Assembly: GCA_008080735.1 (NCBI GenBank)
Contig: SHMW01000032.1
Span: 1-39,962 of the forward strand
Length of the DNA: 39,962 nt
Source of the DNA: Promethearchaeota archaeon
GTDB lineage: Archaea > Asgardarchaeota > Lokiarchaeia > Sigyniarchaeales > SOKP01
Direction of reading: 5' to 3'
The notes beneath the pieces were generated by a model. It did not search any database and was not told the origin of the DNA. It saw only the letters and a program-made list of their open reading frames with translations. Position 1 is the stretch's first letter, and every line of letters begins with the position of its first letter. Of this stretch, positions 38,576-39,824 are shown one piece after another. The position numbers were made by a program, and so were the translations under genes.

Positions 38576-39565
38576 ATGACTTCTTTTAAAAAACAATTCA
38601 ATATCAAATTAATGAAAAAAATAATTAATAACAGGTATAAATATCAGCCTCAACTTAAGGAGACGAAACTAAATTTATTTCTCAGACAAATCGAACAACT
38701 ATCTCGCAAAAAAACCAATGATCAAGTAGAAGTATCTAATTCTTTAACCCAAGAAGAAAAAATACGATGGAGTAGACAGCTTCGGAATCCGATACTCAAT
38801 CAAGAAAAAATAAAAAACGCGAAAATAAGTGTATTTGGGTTGGGAGGTATTGGGTCAAATGTCCTCTTGAATTTAGCTTATGTTGGGGTCTCTAATCTGG
38901 CTCTAATTGATTATGATAGGATTGAGCTTTCAAATCTAAACCGTCAAACCTTATATACTCCAAAGGATATTGGAAGATTTAAAACGGAATCTGCTCAAAA
39001 AAGACTTTTACAAATAAATCCCGATATAACATCAGAAATCTATAATTTAGAATTGGATTATCCTAAAGGAATTGAATTGTTGAACTTCCCTCCAAATGAA
39101 TATCCCGAGAGGATTTCAATACTAAATTCAATTATTTCAAATAGTGATATTGTTATAAACGCTATGGATTACAAGGGTGCTCCTTATCTTATAAATGATT
39201 TATGTGTGAAGAACAAAAAGCCCTTTTATTGGGCTGGAATTAATTACTTTCTTGGAGAGATTTATTGCTATTTTCCTTCTAAAGAAACGGCATGCATACG
39301 AGATATATTTCATCCTAATGAACCGCTTTTTAATCAAAGCTTTTTACGATATAAAGAGCAGAATCAAGGATTAAATAAATCCAGTTATAGTCTTGGTATA
39401 ATTGCCATAATTATTGGAAGTCTTATATCGAATTTAATACTATTTGATATTAATGAGGTTAACCATCCTTATCATGGGTACTATTTAATGTATGACGGCT
39501 TTAATATTGAGTTAATGAAAATCCCAATTCAAAAAAGAAAAGATTGTCTTTGTCAAAATAGATAA
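38576..39565 (+). CDS. ThiF/MoeB/E1-like adenylyltransferase with N-terminal extension
   Basis: RWSRQL, GLGGIGS, DYDRIELSNLNRQ, GR.K..A..RL..INP, MD; degenerate Zn motifs (CIRD, DCLC). Confidence 0.88.
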   Translation: MTSFKKQFNIKLMKKIINNRYKYQPQLKETKLNLFLRQIEQLSRKKTNDQVEVSNSLTQEEKIRWSRQLRNPILNQEKIKNAKISVFGLGGIGSNVLLNLAYVGVSNLALIDYDRIELSNLNRQTLYTPKDIGRFKTESAQKRLLQINPDITSEIYNLELDYPKGIELLNFPPNEYPERISILNSIISNSDIVINAMDYKGAPYLINDLCVKNKKPFYWAGINYFLGEIYCYFPSKETACIRDIFHPNEPLFNQSFLRYKEQNQGLNKSSYSLGIIAIIIGSLISNLILFDINEVNHPYHGYYLMYDGFNIELMKIPIQKRKDCLCQNR

Positions 39566-39707
39566 AGAAGCTCAATATATTTTTACTATTTGAAAAAATC
39601 TTAAAAATATTGCTGATTAGTTTTCTAATTTATAAAAGCAAAAAAATGGGGATTTTAAATATTCTCATTACAAAATAAGGATACCAATAATTATATTGGG
39701 AATCATT

Positions 39708-39824
39708 ATGAAGAAAAAAACAATTGCTGCGTTAGCTTTAATGCTGGTAGTAGCTTATGGTTTGAGTCTTGCCACAGCGGGCGTAAGTATTCCTGGCTGC
39801 TCTGAGGCTCACCCTAAACTATAG
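39708..39824 (+). CDS. 38-aa small protein with signal-peptide-like N-terminus (candidate precursor peptide; not in ORF track)
   Basis: MKKKTIAALALMLVVAYGLSLATAGVSIPGCSEAHPKL; more GC-rich than its very AT-rich flanks; followed by a T-tract. Confidence 0.65.
   Translation: MKKKTIAALALMLVVAYGLSLATAGVSIPGCSEAHPKL

Follow-up and report, generated by a model that had tools for sequence, protein, structure and literature searches.

The stretch analyzed here (the window) is one whole contig of 39,962 nucleotides (nt) from an archaeon of the Promethearchaeota, SHMW01000032.1 (contig C32 of the source genome G000, which has 4.1 Mb at 33.6% GC and is 93% complete). Its last 1.4 kb carries a gene for a ThiF-family adenylyltransferase of 329 residues (38576-39565) and, after a gap of 142 nt, a small open reading frame (ORF) of 38 codons (39708-39824), both on the plus strand, as are all window features described below unless stated otherwise. 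Both are real genes, and they are the first two members of a three-gene cluster conserved in Promethearchaeia. The third gene, which codes for a protein of approximately 1,200 residues, was invisible to an initial annotation of the window because the contig breaks 138 nt past the end of the small ORF. We refer to the ThiF-type enzyme of the window and its orthologs as ThiF* and to the third-gene protein as Big. Comparisons were made with 40 related metagenome-assembled genomes (MAGs) of uneven completeness, 24 from the same taxonomic family and 16 from neighboring families. Based on sequence, the relatives of G000 are all Promethearchaeia or Promethearchaeota, i.e., Lokiarchaeia-type Asgard archaea.

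ThiF* and the gene for a small, predicted exported peptide

ThiF* is a member of the ThiF/E1 superfamily, its residues 75-325 matching PF00899 with 169.6 bits, against a cutoff of 28.1 (E value of 8.5e-50). The initial annotation had described the ATP-binding motifs as intact, and alignments of 9 and 14 orthologs confirmed it. The nucleotide-binding loop GLGGIGS (residues 88-94; 38837-38857) has G88, G90, G91, I92 and G93 invariant in the ortholog alignment, and the further ATP-site residues, i.e., R64 and R67 (RWSRQ, with the arginine finger), S119 to Q124 (SNLNRQ), the catalytic Lys K136 and the Mg-binding Asp D198, are all found in ThiF*. This whole set, G88 to G93 included, is invariant in the 9-ortholog alignment and, with the exception of R67, in the 14-ortholog alignment.

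Compared with Escherichia coli ThiF and MoeB, ThiF* carries an N-terminal extension of some 55 to 63 residues and an internal insertion with an invariant Y-P, both of which had been noticed at the outset. The extension (residues 1-63; 38576-38764) is conserved among the 14 orthologs, with R20, Q24 and L27 invariant and Y21 nearly so. It is predicted to form helices at residues 2-20 and 25-43, followed by a disordered linker. In the AlphaFold2 model of ThiF* (mean predicted local distance difference test score [pLDDT] of 81.8), it folds as a two-helix hairpin, the pLDDT falling below 50 at residues 45-55. Pfam searches with the N-terminal extensions of five orthologs, at E values of up to 10, returned only noise.

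The zinc site is made up of C240-I-R-D243 (39293-39304) and C324-L-C326 (39545-39553). These motifs had been read correctly as CIRD and CLC, but to call them eroded was an over-reading, because most orthologs, those outside the clade of the window, have C-L-R-C in the first half and C-x-C is invariant in the family. The alignment thus points to a family variant of the zinc site, in which Asp at the fourth position is limited to the clade of the window. Only C210, C240, C324 and C326 are conserved as Cys family wide, C230 being peculiar to the window copy. No Cys is conserved in the crossover loop across the ortholog alignment, in agreement with the absence of a loop Cys reported initially.

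The structural model of ThiF* was closest to E. coli ThiF (Foldseek E value of 6e-21), with template modeling (TM) scores of 0.85 to 0.87 by target length for ThiF and MoeB, and the next matches were PaaA, UBA5, Uba4 and MccB. No NCBIfam equivalog cutoff was reached, the scores being 123.4 bits for MoeB (cutoff of 449), 121.8 bits for ThiF (275) and 96.5 bits for UbaA (450), and ThiF* lies outside these three equivalogs. The source genome has four other ThiF-family genes, including a canonical 249-residue form with C-x-x-C on contig C37 and longer E1-like forms on C21 and C118. Full-length ThiF* orthologs (E values of 5e-82 or lower) were found in 8 of the 40 relatives, the next matches having E values of 6e-29 or weaker, and a scan with one genome per species yielded 14 loci, all in Promethearchaeota or archaeal MAGs. 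ThiF* thus appears to be an accessory paralog specific to Promethearchaeota. Grouping of the enzyme with housekeeping UbaA or MoeB, which had been named as an outcome that would refute the initial proposal, was not observed: the 14 loci form a single clade in the tree (support of 99/99), apart from the paralogs of G000 itself. No plausible ORF ending in Gly-Gly, as for a ubiquitin-like partner, was found in the window or beside ThiF* orthologs; the sole short ORF of the window with this ending sits inside a larger gene on the opposite strand.

The DNA had also been described as markedly AT-rich. This was not borne out: the GC content of the gene is 30.0%, that of the genome averages 33.6%, and equally low or lower values occur in 16% of genome windows of the same size. 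Horizontal transfer of ThiF*, considered because of its AT content, was rejected on this 16th-percentile rank. In PADLOC, the hits of ThiF* were confined to the generic E1 part of E1-E2 models and neither Big nor the peptide had any, so that a defense-system reading was dropped.

The small ORF belongs to a family of predicted exported peptides of 36 to 38 residues, delineated by paralog comparison, a family alignment and a profile search. It had first been proposed on its signal-peptide features, and comparison with a paralog established that it is real. This paralog lies on contig C30 (G000:C30:32876-32986; L061:1501-1608), downstream of genes for an S26 signal peptidase and for Alba. Over their first 33 codons the two copies show 14 synonymous and no nonsynonymous differences, which excludes both chance and recent gene conversion and indicates purifying selection on the frame. 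The initial reservation that the ORF might not be conserved is thereby removed.

A promoter-like box consisting of a G-run and TTTAAATA (39648-39661) precedes the ATG of the small ORF by 46 nt, and a terminator-like T-run after a weak hairpin (39845-39856; fold of -4.2 kcal/mol, z of -1.98) follows the ORF. The box and the T-run are shared with the C30 copy, whereas the remaining flanking noncoding DNA has diverged, and the small ORF is therefore probably its own transcription unit. By the archaeal B recognition element/TATA consensus, the TTTAAATA box would be its promoter. An Rfam search over 38200-39962 gave no match at E values of up to 1. A scan for sigma-70 promoters and intrinsic terminators, which is unsuited to archaea, stayed at background level.

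Residues 1-24 (39708-39779), with KKK, a hydrophobic core and A-T-A before the cut, read by eye as a Sec-type signal peptide. They are followed by the predicted exported tail (residues 25-38; 39780-39821), with its G-V-S-x-P-G-C core; the invariant residues there are G25, V26, P29, G30 and C31, and S27 is close to invariant. The family consensus opens with one or two Lys residues and approximately 18 hydrophobic ones, has small residues at the -3 and -1 positions (most often A-T-A or A-A-A) and ends in G-V-S-x-P-G-C-x-E-x-x-P-stop, the Pro-stop lying exactly five residues past the Cys in nearly all members. In the 20 aligned members, also inspected by eye, K or KK, a hydrophobic stretch of approximately 18 residues and A/S/V-x-A before G-V-S were all present.

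The window copy departs from this consensus at its end. A 1-nt gap relative to the C30 copy (39801-39807) turns x-E-x-x-P-stop into E-A-H-P-K-L-stop. Adding one base after 39804 restores ...G-S-P-stop, and if that base is A, the family ending S-E-G-S-P-stop. The tail E-A-H-P-K-L thus appears to be a frameshift product peculiar to the window copy. The Cys seven residues before the terminal Leu, to which the initial annotation drew attention, is indeed found there, but since it arises from the frameshift, this geometry is not a feature of the family.

At E values of up to 1e-6, the peptide family was detected in 15 of the 24 same-family genomes, most of which have one to three copies, and in a single genome from a neighboring family. 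Against 1.84 billion cluster representatives, the family profile retrieved only 26 clusters, all of them short ORFs and nearly all ending with the profile. The family is small and confined to Promethearchaeota. For reference, 4% of the short ORFs in G000 end in Pro. Two other readings of the peptide were rejected on the family alignment, i.e., a lipoprotein, because the lipobox fails with an invariant Pro at -2 to the Cys and a variable residue at -3 (I, Y, V, T, F, G, Q, D or M), and a type IV pilin-like signal. PF04647 (AgrB) was not found in G000, and control genomes likewise gave no valid positive.

Big and the clustering of the three genes

The third gene was recovered from the neighboring assembly. 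In G000, the C-terminal 623 residues of Big open contig C54 (C54:2-1873), and the gene for an ADP-forming acyl-CoA synthetase (ACD) follows. In G006, a genome of the same genus, the order is CdhD, ThiF*, peptide, a Big of 1,216 residues and ADP-forming acyl-CoA synthetase, and a JGI contig repeats the order ThiF*, peptide and a protein of 1,206 residues. Because the first gene of C54 is a truncated Big and the next codes for the synthetase that also follows Big in G006, C32 and C54 are neighbors, with a gap of approximately 1.9 kb between them. Full-length Big is available at L027:4668-8318(-) and as P0001.

Big has no Pfam domain, and a sequence search of the PDB gave nothing below an E value of 0.1. 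Its homologs all come from Promethearchaeota, Hermodarchaeota or Thorarchaeota and are thus confined to Asgard archaea. Among the compared genomes, it was found in 22 of the 24 same-family relatives and in none of the 16 from neighboring families. A model built from 33 sequences (pLDDT of 84.9, predicted TM score of 0.85) had as its best fold match the Lrp/AsnC-type siroheme decarboxylase NirDL (Z of 13.0 over 291 aligned residues). Residues 195-358 match Lrp/AsnC regulators (Z of 6.4 to 6.8), and a weak resemblance to small peptidases of the zincin type was seen for the N-terminal 130 residues (Z of 6.5 to 7.0), the family consensus reading L-R-E-x-Y at the position of the zincin H-E-x-x-H, without the His ligands. 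In the ESM Atlas, the best score, 0.79 to an HTH_AsnC cluster, was too low by itself and was later borne out by the fold search. The model thus suggests that Big consists of several Lrp/AsnC-like modules behind a ligand-less zincin-like N-terminal domain. The 1,216-residue neighbor in G037, which has a prenyltransferase-like domain, proved unrelated to Big, and the idea that Big is LanM-like or a cyclase was therefore abandoned.

ThiF*, the peptide and Big cluster nonrandomly. Big is the direct neighbor of ThiF*, oriented in tandem or divergently, at 9 of the 14 database loci. Three lineages have a copy of the peptide gene no more than 2 kb from ThiF*, each in a different arrangement: in tandem in the clade of the window (the window, G006 and the JGI contig), convergently in the Yap150 MAG, 92 nt from the ThiF* stop codon, and in the order ThiF*, B12-binding radical S-adenosylmethionine (SAM) enzyme, peptide in G024. 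Members of the peptide family are present in all nine genomes of the relatives set that have ThiF*. In G006, G010, G014 and G022, copies or divergent homologs of the peptide were found a few hundred bases or less from Big, and signal-peptide ORFs ending in Pro adjoin Big in these four genomes as well as in G003 and G012. Big adjoins such peptides in at least six genera. The copy next to Big in G014 (L099:3708-3821[-]) has an in-frame TAA within the signal peptide and could be a pseudogene, a sequencing error or a case of read-through.

We screened the 1 kb around Big genes for hydrophobic ORFs of 28 to 48 residues ending in Pro, which occur at 13.75 per Mb in G000. They flank 7 to 9 of the approximately 24 Big loci, against approximately 0.7 expected from the genome-wide density, although this enrichment is no clean test because the lineages share ancestry. 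In G003, the block from CdhD to Big is as in the window but has no ThiF*, and a divergent signal-peptide ORF of 38 residues is present (L104:4688-4804[-]); its tail has His at the position of the Cys and no Glu, with the spacing to the terminal Pro unchanged. In G012, which has several Big paralogs, each of three Big copies has an adjacent, divergently transcribed signal-peptide ORF (L105:9864-9986, L106:5967-6089 and L112:12855-12992). Their tails are rich in Gly and Pro, each different, and end in Pro, with no residue at the Cys position. The peptide-Big pair looks as if it was coduplicated there, and this, together with the varied orientations, argues for selection on proximity.

Genes for major facilitator superfamily (MFS) transporters, GCN5-related N-acetyltransferases (GNAT), methyltransferases and B12-radical SAM enzymes recur around ThiF* in various lineages. 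In G013, a GNAT domain is fused to the N terminus of ThiF* (L031:8136-9734[-]), and in G023, the same GNAT is a separate gene upstream of ThiF* (L033:5866-6435[-]). The B12-radical SAM enzyme was considered as a constant partner and rejected, the copies of G000 itself lying on C27, away from the cluster. On that contig, two tandem B12-binding radical SAM paralogs are joined in a single open frame of 1,089 codons (G000:C27:37573-40743), and they are homologous to the enzyme adjoining ThiF* in G014, G024 and L080.

Three ThiF* orthologs with a longer N-terminal extension of approximately 105 residues (L073, L075 and L076) form a sister clade (support of 100/100). They are flanked by ORFs of only 9 or 10 codons that start with M-R-G and end in Pro, two in L073 (L073:7687-7716 and L073:9096-9125), one in L076 (L076:4995-5024) and one in L075 (L075:4733-4759); one of the mini-genes has a TTG start followed by F-R-G. 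A pattern search of the sister-clade genomes retrieved two more (L110:1124-1153 and L110:2270-2299), each adjoining a class I methyltransferase gene homologous to that next to ThiF* in L073 and L076 (E value of 7e-40), whereas the reversed-pattern control gave none. The TTTAAATA box lies upstream of every mini-gene inspected. A hairpin of 8 to 13 bp and a C-C-U-A-U-U-U-U run follow four of the five mini-genes folded, that of L075 having a T-run alone. The mini-genes contain no Cys. The profile of the 36-residue family has no match in the sister-clade genomes, and no mini-gene of the M-R-G...P type was found in G000. The restored window-type tail P-G-C-S-E-G-S-P resembles the mini-gene product R-G-G-N-D-G-S-L-P, both being too short for the resemblance to prove homology.

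Upstream of ThiF*, on the minus strand of the window, a short ORF (38231-38386) abuts the start of the CdhD gene and encodes a hydrophobic helix flanked by Lys. A similar peptide is found at the equivalent site in G006 (L027:10048-10134), and the ORF may code for a small membrane protein cotranscribed with cdhD.

Explanations for the cluster

A functional link between ThiF* and the peptide is likely, and a peptide-modification or peptide-signaling system at this locus is plausible. The explanation that we put forward, tentatively and as somewhat short of probable, is that ThiF* is a peptide-directed adenylyltransferase acting within the ThiF*-peptide-Big cluster. A stand-alone enzyme with an intact ATP site, and not the MoeB/UbaA of the cell, it would activate the C-terminal carboxylate of the short, Pro-ending ribosomal peptides encoded beside it, the acyl-adenylate then being resolved by some nucleophile. 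The analogy is with ThiF, MoeB and MccB, all of which target the C-terminal carboxylate (PMC12250964). A chain of 36 residues is completed while its signal peptide is still inside the ribosome and is too short for cotranslational targeting, so that the peptide would first be free in the cytoplasm and within reach of ThiF* prior to export. The Sec-type signal peptide would then direct its export, and cleavage after A-x-A would leave a peptide of 12 to 14 residues. Big is the more constant partner of the peptide and may serve as a scaffold for its binding, a maturation factor or a receptor. ThiF*, the B12-radical SAM enzyme, the methyltransferase, GNAT and the MFS transporter would be lineage-specific additions. 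Prediction of the complex of the ThiF* dimer with the peptide gave scores of 0.00 and 0.01, where 0.32 is the mark, a result that counts neither way.

A number of observations weigh against peptide-directed adenylation by ThiF*. At least eight relatives, mostly more than 89% complete, hold the peptide without ThiF* (G001, G004, G005, G008, G010, G015, G020 and G022), and ThiF* is therefore not obligatory for the peptide. Conversely, five ThiF* loci have no peptide gene nearby (G002, G009, G013, G023 and G037). The gene order S26 signal peptidase-Alba-peptide, which five genomes from three genera share (G000, G006, G008, G010 and G020), is the context in which the peptide is most widely conserved, and it lies far from ThiF*. 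The adjacency of ThiF* and peptide is partly inherited synteny, so that the lineages are not independent trials. The approximately 60-residue extension of the window ThiF* is predicted to be a hairpin and not a RiPP recognition element (RRE) or peptide-clamp domain, which would take approximately 90 to 100 residues (RiPP, ribosomally synthesized and posttranslationally modified peptide). Lastly, the frameshifted tail implies that either the C terminus is not critical or the window copy is decaying.

The strongest rival, which we regard as unlikely but serious, is that the peptide and Big form a signaling or regulatory pair, in which the peptide is exported and processed and Big is its cognate sensor or regulator. 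The partner or substrate of ThiF* would then be Big or a small molecule, and its closeness to the peptide would be due only to both adjoining Big. The adjacency of Big and peptide is broader than that of ThiF* and peptide, as it occurs without ThiF* in G003, G010, G012 and G022; ThiF* for its part is next to Big in the 9 of 14 loci noted above, and an MFS gene adjoins Big without ThiF* in G007, G010, G016 and G019. The one peptide per Big copy in G012, with differing tails, is the pattern expected of cognate pairs, and the Lrp/AsnC matches of the Big model, to NirDL and to Lrp regulators, would suit a regulator. However, NirDL is an enzyme and not a regulator, and the shared fold need not give Big a shared function such as the binding of DNA or peptide. 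Many peptide copies lie far from Big, and the mini-genes of the sister clade flank ThiF* directly. Those of L110 pair with methyltransferases, with no Big within the 6 kb read, an arrangement that resembles biosynthesis more than sensing. That the small ORF has no functional link to its neighbors, being an independent small membrane or secreted protein placed by inherited gene order, seems quite improbable. It has a promoter-like box and T-run of its own and occurs in diverse contexts (S26 peptidase-Alba, NMO-ferredoxin, a Ras-like GTPase and PEPCK), and the ThiF*-linked copy is not specialized, as both copies of G000 encode identical first 33 residues. Against this stand the excess of Pro-ending signal-peptide ORFs at Big loci, the occurrence of every orientation, the coduplication in G012 and the three arrangements of ThiF* and peptide.

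The initial annotation had proposed a more specific chemistry, in which ThiF* adenylates the C terminus and the Cys attacks it, yielding a thiolactone ring like that of an autoinducing peptide, exported as a signal. The neighborhood supports its general idea of a functional link between enzyme and peptide, whereas the thiolactone specifics found no support, and we consider them highly improbable. The Cys is invariant in the 36-residue family and five residues from the C terminus in nearly all members, as if ring size mattered; all ATP-site residues are kept in ThiF*; and the ThiF-like enzyme GrcB does make a peptide thiolactone (PMC12250964). However, in the Big-linked homologs the Cys is replaced by His (G003) or has no counterpart (G012), so that a Cys thiolactone is not the general chemistry. 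The mini-genes lack Cys altogether, the spacing of seven in the window copy comes from a frameshift, the peptide is found without ThiF* in at least eight genomes, and the ThiF* model has no RRE-like domain. A housekeeping role for ThiF*, as a MoeB, ThiF or UbaA that activates a ubiquitin-like sulfur carrier, is close to excluded. Its nearest folds are E. coli ThiF and MoeB, and tusA, dsrE, iscS and iscU genes lie elsewhere in the window. Yet its scores of 96 to 123 bits fall far below the equivalog cutoffs of 275 to 450, it is found in only 8 of the 40 relatives, and the genome has a canonical paralog on C37 and E1-like forms on C21 and C118; moreover, the crossover loop lacks a conserved Cys, and none of the nearby short ORFs ends in Gly-Gly.

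A wider reading of peptide-directed adenylation, possible but doubtful, is that Promethearchaeia have a ribosomal-peptide system of their own, in which Pro-ending precursors would be activated by an RRE-less ThiF clade and bound or matured by Big. The precursors would be either peptides of 36 to 45 residues with a signal peptide or the bare products of 9 to 10 residues of the mini-genes, with lineage-specific tailoring genes (methyltransferase, B12-radical SAM enzyme and GNAT) and an MFS transporter at some loci. Should this hold, no ThiF-dependent pathway to a peptide natural product or peptide signal would have been described in Archaea before. ThiF-like enzymes making ribosomal peptides are known from bacteria, and a 2025 review of these enzymes does not mention archaea. 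Our literature search found no description of the peptide family, of Big or of the ThiF* clade. Asgard archaea are the prokaryotes most closely related to eukaryotes, and their secreted peptide signals and antibiotics have hardly been explored. The parts open to experiment are the 36-residue family, the dedicated ThiF clade, the mini-genes of the sister clade and the near-universal 1,200-residue partner with its confident model, and synthetic peptides and recombinant proteins would suffice, without culture of the organism. Even if ThiF* were unrelated to the peptide, the pairing of Big and peptide and the conserved, predicted secreted Cys-peptide of this Asgard family would remain new.

Comparison with known systems

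In its fold, its ATP-site residues and its Cys-based zinc site, ThiF* resembles E. coli ThiF and MoeB and archaeal UbaA, with ThiF as the best fold match. It differs from them by the extra N-terminal hairpin, the insertion with the invariant Y-P, C-x-C instead of a second C-x-x-C and a patchy distribution.

A different likeness is to peptide signaling. In the RRNPP systems of Gram-positive bacteria (Phr/Rap, PapR/PlcR and SHP/Rgg), a secreted pro-peptide is encoded beside a cytoplasmic receptor with tetratricopeptide (TPR) repeats. As in these systems and AgrD, the peptide genes described here are tiny, code for a predicted export signal followed by a short mature portion at the C terminus, and lie beside a large, predicted cytoplasmic protein with helix-turn-helix modules; paralogous Big copies, too, each have their own peptide. 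Instead of TPR repeats, however, the Big model has Lrp/AsnC-like modules and a zincin-like domain.

The microcin C cluster comprises the adenylyltransferase MccB, the 7-residue MccA, the MFS exporter MccC, the methyltransferase-fold MccD and the GNAT MccE. The mccA mini-gene is followed by a hairpin terminator, and microcin C chemistry needs the terminal Asn of the precursor. Like MccB, ThiF* is a ThiF-fold enzyme encoded beside a very short ribosomal peptide gene, its orthologs are accompanied by accessory MFS, class I methyltransferase and GNAT genes, and MccB chains are among the best fold matches of its model (TM score of approximately 0.6). The mini-genes of the sister clade, of 9 or 10 codons with a hairpin and T-run, are mccA-like but end in Pro. 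The differences are as clear: MccB has an N-terminal clamp or RRE of approximately 90 residues where ThiF* has a predicted two-helix hairpin; the C-terminal residue is Pro in nearly all peptides and in all mini-genes, and Leu in the window copy, instead of Asn; the window peptide carries a Sec-type signal peptide; and the hosts are archaeal. The recurrence of MFS, GNAT, methyltransferase and B12-radical SAM genes around ThiF* parallels known ThiF-type peptide clusters (PMC12250964).

With GrcB, PaaA, EnfB and IndF, ThiF* would share the ATP-dependent activation of a carboxylate in a ribosomal peptide. MccB, PaaA, GrcB and EnfB are defined by an RRE or peptide clamp of approximately 90 to 100 residues (PMC12250964), and the RRE essential in the GrcB group is missing from the ThiF* model. 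GrcB forms a Glu-Cys thiolactone (PMC12250964), and the 36-residue family keeps the Cys, with Glu or Asp two residues later in most members. The Cys-x-Glu spacing would nevertheless give a far smaller ring, and neither Cys nor Glu is kept in the Big-linked homologs and the mini-genes. Because it lacks both the RRE and the C-terminal Asn of the precursor, we do not file the locus as a member of the ThiF-type RiPP clusters. A short candidate precursor gene beside the enzyme, as in those clusters, is nevertheless found at the window and in G006, the JGI contig, Yap150, G024, L073, L075 and L076. By analogy, the locus would work most like the bacterial ThiF-type ribosomal peptide clusters, i.e., those of microcin C, pantocin and the GRC type.

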